From Candidatus Aenigmatarchaeota archaeon (GTDB taxonomy: Archaea > Aenigmatarchaeota > Aenigmatarchaeia > QMZP01): a stretch of DNA of 64,000 bases. A program made the position numbers and the translations under genes. Each line of letters starts with the position of its first letter. Within the stretch, counting starts at the first letter, position 1. The DNA lies in assembly GCA_026397335.1 (NCBI GenBank), contig JAPLVB010000048.1:136-64135 (forward strand), read 5' to 3'. Positions 4,101-32,977 of the stretch are shown one piece after another. Under the pieces are notes generated by a model. The model did no database searches and had not been told where the DNA came from. It was given only the letters and a program-made list of their open reading frames with translations.

Positions 4101-5047
4101 ACAAGGACCTGTTGTCCATAAACGACCTCTCAGTAGAGGAGATGCAGATAGTCTTCCGCAGGGCGGATGAGATACGGAAGGATGCGAAAAGGTATGAAAA
4201 CCTCCTGAAAGGGAGGACCTTGGCTCTGATTTTTGAGAAACCCTCCACCCGGACGCGAGTCTCTTTTGAGGTCGGGATGTGGCAGCTCGGAGGAAAATCC
4301 ATATACATGAACTGGAACGACATGCAGCTTTCCAGGGGGGAGAGCATAAAGGACACCACAAAAGTCATGGAAAGGTACGTGGACGGGATAGTCGCAAGAG
4401 TCTACTCCCACAGAGAAGTGGAGGAGCTTTCAAGAAACGCCAAAATCCCTGTCATAAACGGGCTCTCGGACCTTGAGCATCCATGCCAGGTCCTTGCTGA
4501 CATGTACACAATAAGGGAGAAGAAAAAAGTCCTGAAGGGCCTGAAACTCGCTTATCTTGGGGACGGCGCCAGCAATGTGTGCCATTCCCTCATGCTTGCA
4601 TGCACAAAGCTCGGGATGGACATGTATGTGGCCTGTCCGGAAAAATACTCTCCAAATAAGGAGATCCTGAAACAGGCAGAGGAGAACTCGAGGAAGTTCT
4701 GGACAACCCTGAAGATAGTTCCTAAAGTCGCACAGGCCGTGACAAACGCGGATATAATTTATACAGACACATGGGTGAGCATGGGAGAGGAAGAGCAGGC
4801 GAAGAAGCGAAAGAAGGACCTCAGGCCATACCAGCTGAATTCAGAAGTCCTGAAATTAGCGAAAAAGGACTGCCTTGTCATGCACTGCCTCGCAGCGCAC
4901 AGGGGGCAGGAAATCACGGATGAGGTGATTGACGGACCGAACTCAGTGGTATTTGACCAGGCCGAGAACAGGCTCCATGTGCAGAAAGCTCTCCTGACCA
5001 TGATGCTGAGGGAGCCTCCCAAGCAGGTTTTCAGGCCTTTTTATTAG
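4097..5047 (+). CDS. argF: Ornithine carbamoyltransferase
   Basis: STRTR carbamoyl-phosphate motif plus HPCQ, DTWVSMG and MHCLAAHRG (OTC-type HCLP region with an Ala substitution). The start overlaps the GGGPS stop by 4 nt. Confidence 0.7.
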   Translation: MNKDLLSINDLSVEEMQIVFRRADEIRKDAKRYENLLKGRTLALIFEKPSTRTRVSFEVGMWQLGGKSIYMNWNDMQLSRGESIKDTTKVMERYVDGIVARVYSHREVEELSRNAKIPVINGLSDLEHPCQVLADMYTIREKKKVLKGLKLAYLGDGASNVCHSLMLACTKLGMDMYVACPEKYSPNKEILKQAEENSRKFWTTLKIVPKVAQAVTNADIIYTDTWVSMGEEEQAKKRKKDLRPYQLNSEVLKLAKKDCLVMHCLAAHRGQEITDEVIDGPNSVVFDQAENRLHVQKALLTMMLREPPKQVFRPFY

Positions 5048-24979: not shown

Positions 24980-25288
24980 ATGGCGAAAAAGAGAAGGGCT
25001 TCCTCAAAGAAGTACTACGTTCTCAAAAGCGGAAGGAAAGTCTCAATCTTCACAGGAAGACAGCCAAGGCAGGCTGCTTTGAAGGCAGCAACCAGGGGAT
25101 TCACAGACATAAGATTGAGGGAAAGAGGACGCAAGAACAAAGACAGGACATATACAGTCCATGTTTTCCAGGGATCAAGGAAGAAGGTCAGCCTTCCAGC
25201 ATCAAGCAAGGTTGACTGGCTGCCAGCACAGGTCTGGAAACCGACTGTGAAGAAAGTCCGAGTTGAAAGACTGAAAACAATAAGATAA
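24980..25288 (+). CDS. Chromosomal protein MC1 family
   Basis: FTGRQPRQAALKAATRG...IRLRERG...VHVF aligns closely with the Methanosarcina MC1 core (FTGKQPRQAALKAANRG...IRLRERGTKKVHVF). Confidence 0.85.
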   Translation: MAKKRRASSKKYYVLKSGRKVSIFTGRQPRQAALKAATRGFTDIRLRERGRKNKDRTYTVHVFQGSRKKVSLPASSKVDWLPAQVWKPTVKKVRVERLKTIR

Positions 25289-27047: not shown

Positions 27048-27545
27048 ATGATATTATCAGTCCAGACCGAGGGCTTTTCCGCGGATGCGAAGATTTTAGC
27101 CATAGGACTGAAGAGGCAGGCGTTCCTAAGGATTTGGAAGTCCTGGGAATTCGCGGACGAGAGGGAAATGATTTTTGACTTCATGAAGTATTTCCTCAAG
27201 ACAGATGATAAGATAGTTATAGGCTTCAATAACCTCAAGCTGGACATCCCTCTGTTACTCCTCCGCTCTGCAGGCCTTCCAAGCTTTGGAGAATTCTTCA
27301 AGAAGATGAATTATGCAAACGCGGAGGATTTGTTCGTGATACTCACATTCATAAACAGGGGCGTGATAAAGGGCCTTGACTATTACTGCAAGAAGGAAGG
27401 CATAGCCTGCGACTTCTCAGACAGGGAGATTATAAGCGCATACAATTCAAAGGATTATGCGAGATTCCAGGAGCTTTTCAAAAAGAAGCTTGAGGCGATG
27501 GATGCATTGTTCCTGAAGATGTGGGAGAAGGTGACGAAGGGATAA
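27048..27545 (+). CDS. RNase-H-like (DnaQ/PolB-exonuclease-fold) protein; catalytic residues appear degenerate
   Basis: Exo-II-like VIGFNNLKLDIPLL; the Exo-I position reads QTE rather than DxE. Distant paralog of the gene at 28133-28729. Confidence 0.35.
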   Translation: MILSVQTEGFSADAKILAIGLKRQAFLRIWKSWEFADEREMIFDFMKYFLKTDDKIVIGFNNLKLDIPLLLLRSAGLPSFGEFFKKMNYANAEDLFVILTFINRGVIKGLDYYCKKEGIACDFSDREIISAYNSKDYARFQELFKKKLEAMDALFLKMWEKVTKG

Positions 27546-27553
27546 ACAGCAGC

Positions 27554-28078
27554 TTAAATAAAGTCAGATATTTTATGCTTCTTTTCTTCATGCCACAACC
27601 AGCCGAGCAATATTACCGCGTCCAAGGCTTCCGTTATATTTGGCGCGTTCAGATAGCTTATGACATGGATTTTCCAGCTTTGCATGGAGAAAGGAAAAAG
27701 CCACATAACTCCTTCATAGCTGCCTCCTCCAATAAGACAGTCAAGTGATATATGAAGAAGTATAGCAAAGGCTGCAACAAAAAAATAAGCCGATTGCCTA
27801 TGCTTCTTGCTTTTCCAGAGGATTGCCGCGGGTATTAAAAATAGGAAAGCAAAGAAAGGCGTGTGCGTTATTCCTCCATGCTGGAGCAATGCGGGAATAT
27901 TCAAATTGAATAAGCCTGCTGTCATTTCCAAGACAATGTCTATGTCCGGCAACAGCCCGAAAAACCCTGCCAAGAAAATCGTGTAGATAGTGAAGTATTT
28001 TTTATGCTTTGCTACATAGTCTCTATATAAGTCAACCAGGATGATGCTTGACAAAACATGGGTTACGGCTAATGGCAT
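27554..28078 (-). CDS. Membrane-bound metal-dependent hydrolase (YdjM/DUF457-like)
   Basis: THxLxS N-terminus with DIDI, HGGITH and HISLD His/Asp clusters across TM segments. Confidence 0.5.
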   Translation of the reverse strand: MPLAVTHVLSSIILVDLYRDYVAKHKKYFTIYTIFLAGFFGLLPDIDIVLEMTAGLFNLNIPALLQHGGITHTPFFAFLFLIPAAILWKSKKHRQSAYFFVAAFAILLHISLDCLIGGGSYEGVMWLFPFSMQSWKIHVISYLNAPNITEALDAVILLGWLWHEEKKHKISDFI

Positions 28079-28132
28079 ATATAGTATTTAATTCACTGAA
28101 GAATAATAAGAACCTTTGCCAAAGGTGCACTT

Positions 28133-28729
28133 ATGGATATGTACTTCGACATAGAGGTCGCTTACACAGACCCTAAATATTTGGAACTTATGAAGCTTGG
28201 GAGGAAGACCCCTGACCCGCACCCTAGCAACTGCAAGATAATCACGATACAATACCAGCTGCTCAAGGATGACGGGACGCCTAAAGGCCCCTTGAGAATA
28301 TTCAGGGAGTGGGATTCTTCTGAGGAGCAGATTATCAGGAAGATTGCGACCATGATACATCCCCAGAGGAAATGGGAGTTCATACCAGTGGGCCACAACA
28401 TCTATTTTGACCTTGGGATGCTTAGGGAGAGGGCCTCCCTTTACGGGATAAACTACCCTGCCTGGTTTATCTACAATGACCTGCCGAGCATAGACATCAA
28501 GCACATATGCGTGGGAATGAACGCATTCAAGCTCAAGGATTCGGGGCTGGACAAGTTCTCAGGAAAGGAGACAAGCGGATTGAACGTGCCTGTATGGTAT
28601 CAAGAGAAAGAGTATGGCAAGATAATAGATTACATAGAGAAAGAGGCGAAAGAGTTTATAGAATTCTACAGGAAACTGAAGGAGACGCTTCCTCTATTTC
28701 GCCAGCAGCATGGATTTTGTAAGGATTGA
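28133..28729 (+). CDS. Predicted 3-prime-5-prime exonuclease with the DEDD/RNase-H-like fold
   Basis: YFDIEV (Exo I DxE), IPVGHNIYFDLGML (Exo II) and YGKIIDY (Exo III Y-x3-D). Confidence 0.5.
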   Translation: MDMYFDIEVAYTDPKYLELMKLGRKTPDPHPSNCKIITIQYQLLKDDGTPKGPLRIFREWDSSEEQIIRKIATMIHPQRKWEFIPVGHNIYFDLGMLRERASLYGINYPAWFIYNDLPSIDIKHICVGMNAFKLKDSGLDKFSGKETSGLNVPVWYQEKEYGKIIDYIEKEAKEFIEFYRKLKETLPLFRQQHGFCKD

Positions 28730-29162
28730 CATGCCCCAGATATTTGTCTATTTCTTTGCTTGTTTTATCCATCTTGGCTTTTAGTATGTTCATAACATCT
28801 TTTGTTTCTTTGGGAGAAAACCCAGCTTCTGTAGCATCGGAAATATTCCTTTCTATGAATAAAATATCGCTTGCAGCTTTCCAAAAACGTCTTTTTTCTA
28901 GGTCTTCCTGTGCACACTCCAATTGTTCTTTGTAAAAGCCCTTCTTGTCGCAATATGCTTTAATAGAGTCAAGCATCCCAAGACCTAACAGCTTTCTATA
29001 AAATTCAGACGACTCGTCTTTGTCAGGATGGCATACATATTTTACAAACCTGCTTGTAAGACCAAGGGCTCCATATTCACCTGAAAGTATAGAGTTTAGA
29101 ATTTCCTTTGCAATAACCCCTTCAAAGAAGGTATTGTAAAATTGGGAATCCAATCCTTCCAT
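28656..29162 (-). CDS. Hypothetical protein (start set at MEGLDSQ to avoid overlapping the upstream gene)
   Basis: ORF only; its 3-prime end overlaps the exonuclease gene antisense by about 74 nt. Confidence 0.3.
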   Translation of the reverse strand: MEGLDSQFYNTFFEGVIAKEILNSILSGEYGALGLTSRFVKYVCHPDKDESSEFYRKLLGLGMLDSIKAYCDKKGFYKEQLECAQEDLEKRRFWKAASDILFIERNISDATEAGFSPKETKDVMNILKAKMDKTSKEIDKYLGHVNPYKIHAAGEIEEASPSVSCRIL

Positions 29163-29167
29163 AATAC

Positions 29168-29554
29168 TCACTTTCTTTCGTATATTTCCAGTTCGTGCGG
29201 TCTTGTTTGCTTGGCGCCCAAAATAGTATTCATTGCCCTCAACCCGTTCAATCTCTCTGTCAATTGCCTGCATACATAGGCGGCTCCGTCAGCTGTTTCT
29301 TCCTCATCGTTTGGGAGCGTTACAGGGCCTTGAATACTCGTTTTGCTATGAGAATCGAGTTCAAATATCATGACATAATCAGTGTCAGTGCCGTGGGGAA
29401 CCTCACTTTCAACTATCAAGGTCCCCTTGATATACAATTCTAATTTCGGTCTGTACATTCTTTCAAGATTGGTTAATTCCACTGTCTGCTCAAAGCATTC
29501 GTCCCTGAAATCCTTCTTAATTTTAGGAACCCTATTCTTTATCATATTTACCAC
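29168..29554 (-). CDS. Hypothetical protein
   Basis: ORF only. Confidence 0.35.
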   Translation of the reverse strand: MVNMIKNRVPKIKKDFRDECFEQTVELTNLERMYRPKLELYIKGTLIVESEVPHGTDTDYVMIFELDSHSKTSIQGPVTLPNDEEETADGAAYVCRQLTERLNGLRAMNTILGAKQTRPHELEIYERK

Positions 29555-29902
29555 TTATTGATGGTTACTTTATTCCTTTATAAAGCTTTCTCCAAGGGAA
29601 TCCTCACTTCCCTCTTTTGCCTTGGGTAAATCCTTATTAAAATGCTTACCATTGGGGGCAGCTTTTTGCCGTTCCTATAGACAAATCCCTCAAAATCGCT
29701 ATCTATCACCTCTATTTTGTCTCAAGAGAAGCTTCCCTTCCACTAAGGGGTCAAATTTCAGGGAACCCTCACTCTAGTGTCTAAAAGTCATTTTATAAAA
29801 TATATTATATAAAGAATATTTATAAAAATATAATATAAAATAGATATTTTTGAATAGTATATATTTTATAGATATAATTAAAAATGGTTAAAATAAAATA
29901 TA

Positions 29903-30478
29903 TTATTTAAAATCTATATTTCTGAAGGCTTTCTCTACATACATGCTGTTTTTTCTAATCTGGAAAGACTGATGAAATCCGAAAAATGAGTCCCATGATA
30001 CCGATTTAGTTACAGTGAAAAATCTATAATTCTCTCCTTCCGGTTGGATAATCCACAAAGAAGTTTTCGGGCTTTCAAGATAGTCGATGGCTTTCCTTAT
30101 AGCGCATGGACCGCATTCCAAGGTTATTGTTTCTTCTCCCTTCTTTGCAAGAACATCTGGTATGCCTCCCATAAAACCGCATTCTATTGACGCTATTCTA
30201 TATCCCAAGTCTTTAAGCAATCTGATGCCGAATGCCTTCATCTCCTTCTGAGGACCCCGGATTCCTCCTATCTTTACAGGAGTCTTTTTGAGCGTTTTCT
30301 TTCTGATGAAGATCGCTTTGTTGTCCAGAAAACCAGCAACTATAACCGCATATTCGCTACTTGTATATCTGATATTGCCTTGTGTGAAAATATCATTTAT
30401 CCTATCAATTGTTTCGAATTTTGTCTTGTAGGTCTTTATGAGGGAGACATATCTCTCCGCTTCAGTTGTCATGCACAA
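29903..30478 (-). CDS. Hypothetical protein with a weak PD-(D/E)xK-like motif
   Basis: GGIPDVLAKKGEETITLECG resembles a restriction-endonuclease-fold PD...ExK with the Lys replaced; speculative. Confidence 0.3.
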   Translation of the reverse strand: MCMTTEAERYVSLIKTYKTKFETIDRINDIFTQGNIRYTSSEYAVIVAGFLDNKAIFIRKKTLKKTPVKIGGIRGPQKEMKAFGIRLLKDLGYRIASIECGFMGGIPDVLAKKGEETITLECGPCAIRKAIDYLESPKTSLWIIQPEGENYRFFTVTKSVSWDSFFGFHQSFQIRKNSMYVEKAFRNIDFK

Positions 30479-30485
30479 ACCTCTT

Positions 30486-31064
30486 TCAGAACAAATCGCC
30501 CATTATCTTCTCATAGCTTTTCTGCACGGAATCCATGCTAGGCGTTCCATAAACGTCTATGGTTGTCTTTATGGAAGAATGTCCGAGTATCTTTTGGACC
30601 TCCTCCATCCTCATCCCTTTCTCCAGCATCATCCTGGCGAAGGAGTGCCTGAAAAGATGAGGATTGATGCATTTCTTGGCAGGGTTTGGGTGATTTACCC
30701 CAGCTCTTTGGCCGCATTTTGCCACTATTTCATTGATTTGCTTAAGGGAAATGGTGCTCTGCTTGTTGCTTATTATGAGCTTGCCGGATGACCTGTCCCC
30801 TAGATAGAACTTAATATCCTGAAGGGTATCGGAATCTACAGGCACAGTCCTGCTTTTGTCTCCTTTGCCGCTCCTTATGTATATCCTTTTCTTTCCGAAA
30901 TCGACATCCTTTATGGTGAGATCCCGGAGCTCGAACCTTCTCATTCCTGTCCTGGCAAGTATCTTTATTATAACCCTATCCCTGAGGGAAGAAGCACACA
31001 AGATAATTTTCCCTATGTCTTCCTTTGCCAAATAATAGAAAGACTCCTTTGCAGCTTCTGACAT
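30486..31064 (-). CDS. Tyrosine recombinase/integrase, short catalytic-domain-only form of about 192 aa
   Basis: ARTGMRRFEL (box I Arg), KGDKSRTVP (Lys), HLFRHSFA (H-x-x-R) and LGHSSIKTTIDVYG (His...Tyr nucleophile). No N-terminal core-binding domain. Confidence 0.8.
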   Translation of the reverse strand: MSEAAKESFYYLAKEDIGKIILCASSLRDRVIIKILARTGMRRFELRDLTIKDVDFGKKRIYIRSGKGDKSRTVPVDSDTLQDIKFYLGDRSSGKLIISNKQSTISLKQINEIVAKCGQRAGVNHPNPAKKCINPHLFRHSFARMMLEKGMRMEEVQKILGHSSIKTTIDVYGTPSMDSVQKSYEKIMGDLF

Positions 31065-31259
31065 GTATTAAATTACGTTACACTTATTTATAAAGGTTAC
31101 GTTTTAGTTACACTTTATAAATTAATGTTACATATAAAGTTACAAAATATACATTCTGTAACGTTTTCTATAGAGAACATCTTTTGGAAGGTACTCAATA
31201 ATCAGGAGGCTAGCTTCCTAAGCTAAACTACCCCAGAAAACGCGATTTGCTCTTGGAAC

Positions 31260-31631
31260 CTAAGCGGCGACTTTCTTCTCTTCCTTTCCGGGCTTTGGCT
31301 GCTTCTTCTTATCTTCCTTTGCTGCGTTCTCCTCTATCTGGGAGAACTTCTTTATCATTGCCTCCACATTATGCGCTATGTCCCAGCCGTCATCCGTGAG
31401 TATGACCTTCTTTATGCGGCCCTGCTTATCGAATTTAACTATGCCCAGGTTCCTGAAAGCGTTTAGGATCTTTATTGTGTGCGAATACGTACAATCAGAT
31501 TCCTTGGCCAGAATAGTCGCATAAACGGGCTTATCCTTGCCGGTTTTCAGGCCCATGAGAATCCTTGCCGGCTTCTCCCTAAGAAACAAATCCTCTAACA
31601 TCCGGTTTTGTGGCATAGTTCTCATCTTCAA
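31260..31631 (-). CDS. Winged-helix DNA-binding protein with a lysine-rich C-terminus
   Basis: wHTH-like segment YATILAKESDCTYSHTIKILNAFRNLGIVKF. Confidence 0.45.
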   Translation of the reverse strand: MKMRTMPQNRMLEDLFLREKPARILMGLKTGKDKPVYATILAKESDCTYSHTIKILNAFRNLGIVKFDKQGRIKKVILTDDGWDIAHNVEAMIKKFSQIEENAAKEDKKKQPKPGKEEKKVAA

Positions 31632-31945: not shown

Positions 31946-32977
31946 TCAGCCCTTCCACTCCAGCAGAATGGCTGCGAGTAGCAGGACGAATCCCAGGATT
32001 ATTGAGAGGATAAAACTGATTTCAGTGGCAGCAGGGTTCAGGATCATGTCTGTGGCACTATATGCTACCAGGGTTATTGCGAATCCGAACAGAGGGATGG
32101 CAGCTATCTTCCTGGAGCGCTTCTTCTTCACGTTCACGTTTCTGCCTATCCACGGTATCGTGCCCGCGAGGAAGAACAGATATACAGAGTGGGATATGAA
32201 CTCGGCCGCGACATTGATTATGCCTAGGTTCAGGGCTTCTATGGCATGGGAATAACCCCTGTAAGCGGCAAATATAGCCATAGCAATTCCAACCACATAT
32301 CCGAAGAATGCGAATCTTCTGTGATTGAAGGAGTCCTCGAATTCCCTCATCATTCTGAGAACATATGTGTCAAGCTTGAATCCCCTTATGAAAAGATAAA
32401 CACCCACAACCCCGAGAATGAGCCTCCATCCCTCAAAACCGAATATAGCATAGATGATAAGAACGACAGCAGGAATGCCGAAGAGCAGGCGCGAGACCTT
32501 GGGATATTCCAGTGTCTCATGCACGAAGTCCTTTACCTTGAAATAGACGGACTGGAGCTGGTCAGCCTGCCTCACCACGACCCTTTTCACGGAAAGTATG
32601 GGGACCCTGGACTGGATTACAGGCATAACACGCTCATCCTCGCTGCCGTCTGTAACAAGCACAGCAAAATTGGCCTCAAACCTGGAAAGAACGCTCTTCA
32701 GCTGCTCCCCTATTATGCGGTCTGACTTTATCCCAACATCCCTGTCTCCTGTAATAATCGCGATTTCCACGTTATACTGCTTTCTCATTTCGTCATACAC
32801 CTTCACTGTCTGGAAAATCCCGTTGAAGTCAGAGGATTCAGGGTCTTTAAGACCCATATCTATGCCTGTCTTCAGGACGCTATCCCTCCCGATAATGGGG
32901 CCTTTGACTGATATTTTCTGGCCTATGTCATTGTCCCTGTCCACGTTCAAAACCAGAATCTTGTCTGTGGATTTCAT
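31946..32977 (-). CDS. DUF373-like archaeal membrane protein (soluble N-domain plus about 6 C-terminal TM)
   Basis: Architecture and N-terminal ILVLNVDRDNDIG-type segment; family assignment is from memory. Confidence 0.45.
   Translation of the reverse strand: MKSTDKILVLNVDRDNDIGQKISVKGPIIGRDSVLKTGIDMGLKDPESSDFNGIFQTVKVYDEMRKQYNVEIAIITGDRDVGIKSDRIIGEQLKSVLSRFEANFAVLVTDGSEDERVMPVIQSRVPILSVKRVVVRQADQLQSVYFKVKDFVHETLEYPKVSRLLFGIPAVVLIIYAIFGFEGWRLILGVVGVYLFIRGFKLDTYVLRMMREFEDSFNHRRFAFFGYVVGIAMAIFAAYRGYSHAIEALNLGIINVAAEFISHSVYLFFLAGTIPWIGRNVNVKKKRSRKIAAIPLFGFAITLVAYSATDMILNPAATEISFILSIILGFVLLLAAILLEWKG

Follow-up and report, generated by a model that had tools for sequence, protein, structure and literature searches.

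The proteins of the Pfam families PF10108 (DNA_pol_B_exo2) and PF13482 are uncharacterised predicted exonucleases, which a survey of the RNase H-like superfamily placed near the exonuclease cluster of the family B DNA polymerases (PolBs) (PMC3985635). They stand alone, measure about 180–210 aa and possess a PolB-like DEDD exonuclease fold. In these respects they are like the proteins described here, which are encoded by a pair of genes, A and C, on a 64,000-nt stretch of archaeal DNA, the whole of which is called the window in this text. The proteins of the DPANN archaea are unlike both Pfam families in an extra segment of ~20–25 aa after the Exo I motif and in a Glu as the acid of Exo III. 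Moreover, the likely active enzyme, C, is accompanied by an upstream paralog, A, that appears to be catalytically dead. Such a paralog is absent from the Pfam entries of PF10108 and PF13482 and from the literature found, and a literature search yielded no description of an active/dead exonuclease pair of this kind. Judged by their sequences, A and C constitute an active/dead variant within a recognised but uncharacterised family of stand-alone polymerase-like exonucleases.

Pairs of this general type are known from other enzymes. In the archaeal exosome, active Rrp41 is joined by inactive Rrp42. In Pol epsilon, there is an inactivated exonuclease-polymerase module (PMC2669801). A and C would resemble both cases in that selection maintains, next to an active protein, an inactive paralog with its fold intact. 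The likeness is one of analogy and not of specific homology, and the A–C complex is itself a proposal.

The gene A protein is 100% identical to a protein (P0036, locus tag NTY20_05125) of a Ca. Aenigmarchaeota metagenome-assembled genome (MAG); therefore, the window represents a DPANN archaeal chromosome. Its other genes are consistent with this assignment, among them those for an MC1 chromatin protein, a prepilin-peptidase-like membrane protein, a membrane pyrophosphatase and a thymidine/AMP-phosphorylase-like protein. For comparison we used the contigs of seven relatives of C and two relatives of A plus 26 loci chosen with one genome per GTDB species (relatives' loci are labelled L001 onward), with flanks of ≤8 kb per side. 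Every locus was scanned with hidden Markov models (HMMs) of the A and C families, and duplicate copies of contigs were merged before counting. Catalytic columns were counted after aligning the distinct retrieved members, 57 C-like and 30 A-like, to the family HMMs. A further HMM was built from five recombinases of the window's sub-clade. AlphaFold2 (AF2) models of A and C were computed from their homolog alignments. Gene letters A–F were assigned by position, and the first three genes are as follows.

27048–27545, plus strand: gene A, 165 aa, PolB-type exonuclease-fold protein, predicted to be catalytically dead, upstream member of the A–C pair
27554–28078, minus strand: gene B, 174 aa, YdjM-family membrane protein
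28133–28729, plus strand: gene C, 198 aa, stand-alone PolB-type DEDDy 3′–5′ exonuclease, predicted to be active

A preliminary description of this region, made from the letters alone, had listed these three open reading frames (ORFs) and two further ones, D and E, and all five were found at the positions and on the strands given there.

Two paralogs with a polymerase-type exonuclease fold

The gene C protein begins with MDMYFDIEV, which contains Exo I, and has its Exo II in GHNIYFDLGML. Both motifs had been noticed before, and the family alignment supports them. D6 and E8, the D-x-E of Exo I, are each present in 48/48 aligned sequences and fall on the FDIE motif when aligned to a PolB; in Exo II, which follows the pattern N-x2-3-(F/Y)-D, N89 is invariant (56/56) and the acid, D93, is Asp in 48 sequences and Glu in the remaining 8. 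Exo III had been placed in YGKIIDY (residues 161–167). The last tyrosine of this string, Y167, is indeed conserved in 56/56 sequences, whereas Y161 and D166 vary across the family and the acid follows four residues after Y167, as Glu (E171) in 54/56. The conserved motif is thus Y167-x3-E171, situated within the last helix (residues 161–192) of the AF2 model.

This model shows an RNase H-like exonuclease fold with a predicted local distance difference test (pLDDT) score of 87.8. The DEDDh enzymes DnaQ/Pol III epsilon, RNase T, oligoribonuclease and those of the TREX type use His in Exo III, whereas C has Tyr (DEDDy), and the sequence similarity of C to small DEDDh exonucleases is marginal (E 0.5 in a PDB profile search). 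Against PF10108, the protein reached 15.4 bits, below the gathering threshold of 24, and it also stayed below threshold for the Rv2179c-like family of Pfam. Among 17 C-family members, six matched PF10108 at E ≤ 0.01, the best with 3.5e-5, and two matched PF13482 at the same cut-off. C thus appears as a related outlier of PF10108 and not as a member by the curated cut-off. The gene is under strong purifying selection, with ratios of nonsynonymous to synonymous divergence (dN/dS) of 0.04–0.06 between the window and its relatives, and the 54-nt spacer that it shares with gene B contains a TATA-like AT-rich sequence, as read from the letters. We predict that C is an active stand-alone DEDDy 3′–5′ exonuclease of the proofreading type of family B polymerases.

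Gene A was matched by PF03104, the exonuclease domain of PolB, with 24.7 bits at a gathering score of 23. This match is limited to the Exo II region (model positions 138–190, i.e. ~53 of 242), and 17/17 A-family members match the same model at E ≤ 0.01. Because A has no polymerase domain, it is not a PolB. Unlike the family B polymerases, both A and C lack the N-terminal, palm, fingers and thumb domains and are separate small proteins. The AF2 model of A (pLDDT 90.7) retrieved archaeal PolBs as top matches in Foldseek, with TMq values of 0.60–0.67, and in the PDB profile search the A family was matched best by Pol delta catalytic subunits, again in the Exo II region (E 1e-4). The retained exonuclease fold that had been proposed for A is supported by these results.

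The catalytic residues of A present another picture. Its Exo I position reads Q6-T-E8, for which reason A had been suspected of being inactive. This suspicion was confirmed and can be extended to the entire family, in which the Asp position of Exo I is Q in 17/29 sequences and acidic in only 5/29. Exo III is lost as well: the equivalent of its Tyr (L143 in the window) is never Tyr, and the equivalent of its acid (K147 in the window) is K, N or R in 30/30. Exo II is kept, with N61 in 29/29 and D66 in 25/29. The family-wide loss of Exo I and Exo III argues that A is a pseudo-exonuclease throughout its family and not just in this genome. At the same time, dN/dS of gene A is 0.07–0.12 (window versus four relatives). 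That minimal DPANN genomes keep a dead copy of an enzyme under such strong selection implies that A probably does something necessary.

A and C had also been proposed to be divergent paralogs. A direct BLASTP comparison of the two showed no significant similarity (E 0.094), but the family profiles aligned in hhalign over 139 columns with a probability of 97.3% (E 1.7e-11), pointing to a real but old paralogy. Single-copy homologs of distant archaea match both profiles, strongly in the case of C and weakly in that of A, which fits an origin of A from a C-like ancestor within DPANN.

Two other accounts of the genes were ruled out. A dN/dS of about 0.1 and an intact reading frame in 30 sequences exclude a decaying pseudogene in the case of A. 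That A and C could be the halves of one split exonuclease domain is excluded by the AF2 models, each of which is a complete fold.

The family is broad. Close database relatives numbered 35 for C and 17 for A, all of them from metagenomes, and the named ones belong to Aenigmatarchaeota or Altiarchaeales with the exception of a single contig that bears the label Deltaproteobacteria. A search of 1.84 billion cluster representatives with the C profile returned 522 clusters (50% identity) at E ≤ 1e-3, of which 101 remained at E ≤ 1e-30. The distant relatives mostly measure 175–195 aa and lack the ~20–25-residue segment that follows Exo I in the DPANN proteins; those sampled match PF13482. In a scan of GTDB the family occurred in six DPANN groups, and distant single-copy forms of C were detected in Thor-, Prometh- and Heimdallarchaeota (Asgard) and in Thermoplasmata. 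In this way an uncharacterised archaeal family of polymerase-type exonucleases becomes defined, with ~500 clusters at 50% identity and, in several DPANN lineages, with a dead paralog paired to it.

The contig deposited as part of a Deltaproteobacteria MAG (QMLL01000387.1, 3140 bp; L017) harbors an A–C pair, a D-like gene and a gene for NAD kinase. Its C is 76% identical to that of the window, and it is probably a mis-binned DPANN contig. In two Asgard loci (L035 and L036), too, a gene for NAD kinase lies 1.6 kb downstream of the single-copy homolog of C.

Chromosomal setting of the A–C pair

In 14 non-redundant loci, gene A is located immediately upstream of gene C on the same strand. These loci come from Aenigmatarchaeota, Woesearchaeota and Undinarchaeota MAGs and from unclassified archaeal MAGs:

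L004, L006, L007, L011, L013, L014, L017, L020, L022, L023, L025, L026, L027 (Woesearchaeota) and L033 (Undinarchaeota)

The distance from the stop of A to the start of C, available for 13 of them, is an overlap of 4–20 nt in eight, a gap of 1–3 nt in two and 34–57 nt in three. The surroundings differ from locus to locus. In L004 they comprise EF-2, ribosomal protein S3Ae, RecJ/Cdc45 and TruD, in L006 a PolB, a trypsin-like protease and a Cas4-like nuclease, in L007 eIF-1A, a KH protein and the CCA-adding enzyme, and in L011 FtsZ, FeoB and L39e. Within the flanks covered, neither the Pfam-annotated gene calls nor the recombinase HMM revealed a tyrosine recombinase in these housekeeping-flanked loci. 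In the window, the G+C content of A and C (0.450 and 0.464) is close to the window mean of 0.466, and the synonymous divergence (dS) between the window and L013 is core-like for both (1.53 for A, 1.33 for C). The synteny of A and C in integrase-free housekeeping loci argues against integrase cargo, and we consider the two a conserved core chromosomal gene pair of DPANN archaea.

The preliminary description had arrived at a different view, in which the five genes form the cargo of an island carried by the nearby integrase and the nucleases degrade invader or host nucleic acid in defence or anti-defence. There is indeed a gene for a tyrosine recombinase 1.8 kb downstream of C, at 30486–31064, and it was exchanged recently (dS 0.30 compared with 1.3–1.5). 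Genes D, E and F are of unknown function, low in G+C (0.377–0.421) and hypervariable among close relatives, and DEDDh nucleases do serve CRISPR and CBASS systems, as illustrated by PDB entries 8fyc and 7t2s among the fold matches. Yet, the integrase is confined to the closest sub-clade (window, L001, L002/L015, L013 and L016), while the A–C pair persists elsewhere in conserved synteny, amid housekeeping genes and without an integrase. Conserved synteny in relatives that lack the integrase is what the preliminary description had itself named as a refutation of its view, so that by this criterion the cargo reading is refuted for A and C. Besides being host-like in G+C, A and C show low dN/dS values (0.04–0.12 over both genes), and no direct repeats resembling att sites and no tRNA target accompany the locus. 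Furthermore, the window and L013 share integrases that are 98% identical, but their D and E genes are unrelated or very divergent.

The defence databases gave no support either. No model of PADLOC-DB 2.0 matched A, B, D, E, F or the integrase, and the only matches were DEDDh for C, below threshold at E 0.04, and CARF3 for a winged-helix (wHTH) protein encoded beyond the recombinase (E 2.9e-4); none of the genes thus obtained a PADLOC match of meaningful score. Pfam names A (PF03104) and B (PF04307), and NCBIfam names none of A, C, D, E and F. Matches of A and C to PHROGs were weak and restricted to polymerase exonuclease families. On the viral contigs of IMG/VR there were no relatives of A, and for C only one remote match at 22% identity to a giant-virus MAG. 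Island cargo is therefore a very improbable explanation of the five genes. The evidence did not bear it out in the case of A, B and C; for D and E, which nothing ties to a named defence system, it is unproven. With the nucleases beside this integrase being core genes, a false lead towards a defence island is removed.

Gene B, between A and C in the window, is a clear member of the YdjM family (PF04307; E 1.4e-18, 67.5 bits against 29, model positions 3–147 of 176), in agreement with its earlier naming as YdjM-like. Its inclusion in a common module with A and C did not hold, since it is not conserved with the pair: an orthologous YdjM gene between A and C was found only in the window and L016. 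In L013 and L014, which are as close to the window as L012 and L016, A and C overlap by 4 nt and nothing lies between them. Because of these equally close relatives, YdjM is best seen as a secondary, lineage-specific insertion into an ancestral A–C bicistron. Its G+C content is 0.411. The A–C pair is interrupted by genes in the window, L012 and L016 only, and the intervening genes differ among these loci. L012 carries a 134-aa methyltransferase-like gene between A and C, and the A–C spacer of L016 contains, besides the YdjM ortholog, an ORF of 183 aa and some 0.8 kb devoid of convincing ORFs. The E. coli gene ydjM is part of the LexA (SOS) regulon.

In L016 the stretch between YdjM and C (4193–5000), for which neither a convincing ORF nor a family match was found, may be what is left of another, degraded insertion into the spacer.

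A possible two-subunit nuclease and its process

Hydrolysis by two metal ions is the established chemistry of the DEDDy proofreading sites of PolB and of Klenow. By analogy with these sites, D6, E8, D93 and E171 of C would bind the pair of metal ions, while the water that attacks would be placed by Y167, so that C would remove nucleotides singly from a free 3′ end. A would have arisen by duplication of a C-like gene and, while keeping the fold and Exo II, would have lost the Asp of Exo I and the Tyr and acid of Exo III, whereby it should be unable to catalyse hydrolysis. From its kept fold, its constraint and its usual co-translation with C, we infer the role of a partner for A: as the non-catalytic half of a heterodimer it would bind the substrate or tether C to other factors. 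The YdjM gene would have been inserted between the two in one sub-lineage. Overall, we favour, with some reservation, a co-translated pair of a catalytic protein and a pseudo-enzyme that form a heterodimer with a role in repair or recombination.

The process is suggested by gene neighbourhoods. Directly downstream of C and on the same strand, three loci possess radA (Rad51 family, E about 1e-91), and in a fourth radA follows at 1.9 kb. These loci belong to Micrarchaeia and Burarchaeum and have no adjacent A.

L024, 5001–6566, same strand: C and radA
L028, 5001–6759, same strand: C and radA
L030, 5001–6791, same strand: C and radA
L029, 506–4133: C and, 1.9 kb downstream, radA

The arrangement looks like an operon. 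When neighbours were clustered across all loci, radA was the sole recurrent functional association outside the window's sub-clade. In addition, the A–C pair of L006 adjoins a PolB (821 aa, one gene away) and the Cas4-like nuclease, that of L007 adjoins a Cas4/RNase_H_2 fusion, and in L004 RecJ/Cdc45 is encoded at a distance of three genes from the pair. On account of these radA, PolB, Cas4-like and RecJ/Cdc45 neighbours we lean towards DNA repair or recombination as the most likely process for the pair, if only weakly. The recurrent link to radA supplies a concrete DNA-repair hypothesis for organisms that are not yet genetically tractable, and the pair is small and easily expressed.

Several observations weigh against a coupled pair acting in repair. 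The acid of Exo III in the predicted enzyme C is Glu and not the canonical Asp, although this appears to be a conservative substitution. Neighbourhood links to DNA metabolism are few, and in L004, L007 and L009 the context speaks rather for translation or the salvage of nucleotides. RNA is as frequent a substrate of DEDD enzymes as DNA, and the present data fit either. No A adjoins C in loci of Altiarchaeales, Micrarchaeia and Burarchaeum, A and C reside on different contigs in one Aenigmatarchaeota MAG (P0039 and P0005; locus-tag prefix QXN71), and other genes separate them in the window, L012 and L016. Therefore, C is probably able to act by itself, and its tight coupling to A is not a requirement.

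The lineages with C alone, which are many, as well as the split and interrupted pairs are also what would be expected if there were no complex, with C a single-subunit exonuclease and A an independent nucleic-acid-binding or scaffolding protein, adjacent only through tandem duplication. Tandem duplicates are neighbours by default at their origin. But here adjacency has outlasted divergence to 42–49% (A) and 46–70% (C) amino-acid identity across several DPANN phyla, 10/13 junctions overlap or are ≤3 nt apart, as is typical of co-translated subunits, and purifying selection on A is as strong as on many enzymes. We thus judge two independent proteins to be unlikely, though a serious alternative to the heterodimer.

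A further possibility concerns the polymerases themselves. Most sequenced Aenigmarchaeota lack the PolD catalytic subunit DP2, and their PolB/PolD content is unusual (PMC7544198). The pair could be a trans-acting accessory for proofreading or 3′-end editing of their Delta-like B6 PolB, for which the PolB exonuclease domains as nearest fold, the Pol delta subunits as best PDB matches of the A family and the PolB one gene from the pair in L006 would speak besides this replicase content. However, the PolB of L006 has an exonuclease domain of its own with an FDIE Exo I motif, adjacency to a PolB was seen in one lineage only, and the C family reaches Micrarchaeia, Asgard archaea and Thermoplasmata, which possess ordinary replicases. 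A polymerase accessory appears highly unlikely on these grounds.

The favoured heterodimer also admits a bolder version: an undescribed two-subunit nuclease of DPANN archaea, with C as the catalytic subunit and A as an obligate dead one for substrate binding or docking, which would function in RadA-dependent recombination or repair or in 3′-end editing for the unusual replicases of their reduced genomes. We regard this version as doubtful. If true, the nuclease would set a precedent among prokaryotes for pseudo-exonuclease subunits that descend from the proofreading domains of polymerases. The A–C pair is of specialist interest and does not open a long-standing question.

The variable recombinase locus next to the pair

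Downstream of C follows a locus that appears to be built around idiomorphic short tyrosine recombinases. Its features in the window are:

28656–29162, minus strand: gene D, about 161–168 aa, helical, fast-evolving, no assigned function; the longest ORF extends to 29273 (205 aa)
29168–29554, minus strand: gene E, 128 aa, no assigned function, immediately upstream of D and oriented like it
29539–29938, no strand: conserved non-coding region between E and F, the two ORFs being separated by a 348-nt gap
29903–30478, minus strand: gene F, 191 aa, no assigned function, downstream of the recombinase, belonging to the islet and not to the A–C pair
30486–31064, minus strand: short tyrosine recombinase, 192 aa, catalytic domain only
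31260–31631, minus strand: wHTH protein, 123 aa, conserved core gene bounding the variable recombinase slot
31946–32977, minus strand: DUF373 membrane protein, beyond the winged-helix gene

D and C converge and overlap by 74 nt (28656–28729), as had been described for one of two unknown genes. The likeliest start of D is the ATG at 29162 (168 aa), just past the stop of E, and a database protein 94% identical to D measures 161 aa. Genes like D converge on C in 7/7 loci of the sub-clade (window, L001, L002, L013, L014, L016 and L017). Their products are 19–34% identical and have the motif CA(R/K)ND..G....A.SDI...E in common; only four database relatives of D were found. In the slot upstream of D, an E-type gene occurs in the window, in L002 (50% identical) and in L013 (distant), and L001 and L016 hold an unrelated gene family there; the promoter and start region of the slot is conserved in five loci. 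None of Pfam, NCBIfam, PHROGs and PADLOC assigned D or E to a family, and a sequence search of the PDB returned noise only. D and E are real, lineage-restricted and rapidly diverging genes in a hypervariable two-gene slot.

Of the five genes, only the D/E part looks island-like, as a hypervariable slot of low G+C content (0.377 in D) beside a recently exchanged recombinase. Since the window and L013 have nearly the same recombinase but unlike D and E genes, D and E did not travel with the recombinase. F (G+C 0.387) has orthologs in L013 (83% identical) and L016 (70%) and is absent from L001 and L002; searches of Pfam, NCBIfam, PHROGs, PADLOC and PDB sequences gave no match. F was seen in company with two different types of recombinase, one in the window and L013, the other in L016.

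The recombinase itself belongs to PF00589 (E 6e-35). It scores 161.8 bits against the archaeal XerA model NF040815 (cut-off 220), covering positions 91–263 of 263, and lacks the N-terminal core-binding domain of that model. At this one locus there are three types of recombinase, which are 26–32% identical between types: one in the window and L013 (98% identical), one in L002 and L016 (85.5%) and one in L001. All have lengths of 187–206 aa.

Window, 30486–31064: recombinase
L001, 1664–2227: recombinase
L002, 8247–8867: recombinase
L013, 2876–3454: recombinase
L016, 7294–7914: recombinase

The wHTH and DUF373 genes that flank the recombinase are 66–92% identical across the loci; the wHTH protein, which has only weak HTH matches in Pfam, is 92% identical in L001 and 82% in L002. 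Between the window and L013, the recombinase has a dS of 0.30 and F one of 0.63, low in comparison to A and C. Therefore, the recombinase was clearly, and F perhaps, exchanged far more recently than the core. The recombinases also match the tyrosine-type DNA invertase of NCBIfam (E 1e-13) and have the size of invertases of the FimB/FimE type, by analogy with which a role in local inversion or switching is conceivable.

The non-coding region at 29539–29938 has a G+C content of 0.293 and is 81% identical to that of L001 over 405 nt, with blocks common to five loci. It contains a promoter/TATA block for E, the block AAGGGGTCAAATTTCAGGGAACCCTCAC (29745–29772) and an AT-rich stretch (29785–29905), and its invariant core reads GGGGTCAAATT..A..AACCCTCAC. 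The region is conserved although the genes on both of its sides vary. It may be a promoter, a protein-binding region or the recombinase's site of action. Rfam yielded no match, neither at gathering thresholds over the whole window nor at permissive E-values over 29400–30050. The idea of a small RNA was dropped, as RNAalifold on the five orthologous copies gave a weak fold of −4.5 kcal/mol and a covariation near 0.

ARAGORN detected no tRNA in the whole 64-kb window, hence there is no tRNA integration target. Between 28400 and 31700 there were no credible att repeats, but short AT-rich matches at chance level and one inverted repeat.

Elsewhere in the window, the gene for the MC1-type chromatin protein (24980–25288), whose ortholog in L002 belongs to PF05854, is 94% identical in nucleotide sequence to its counterpart in L014, well above the 73–82% of its neighbours.

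The inverted repeat, at 31074–31134, is 22 nt long, 82% complementary and interrupted by a 17-nt spacer. It is centred on TTTATAAA-type sequences and lies within the gap between the wHTH gene and the start of the recombinase gene.

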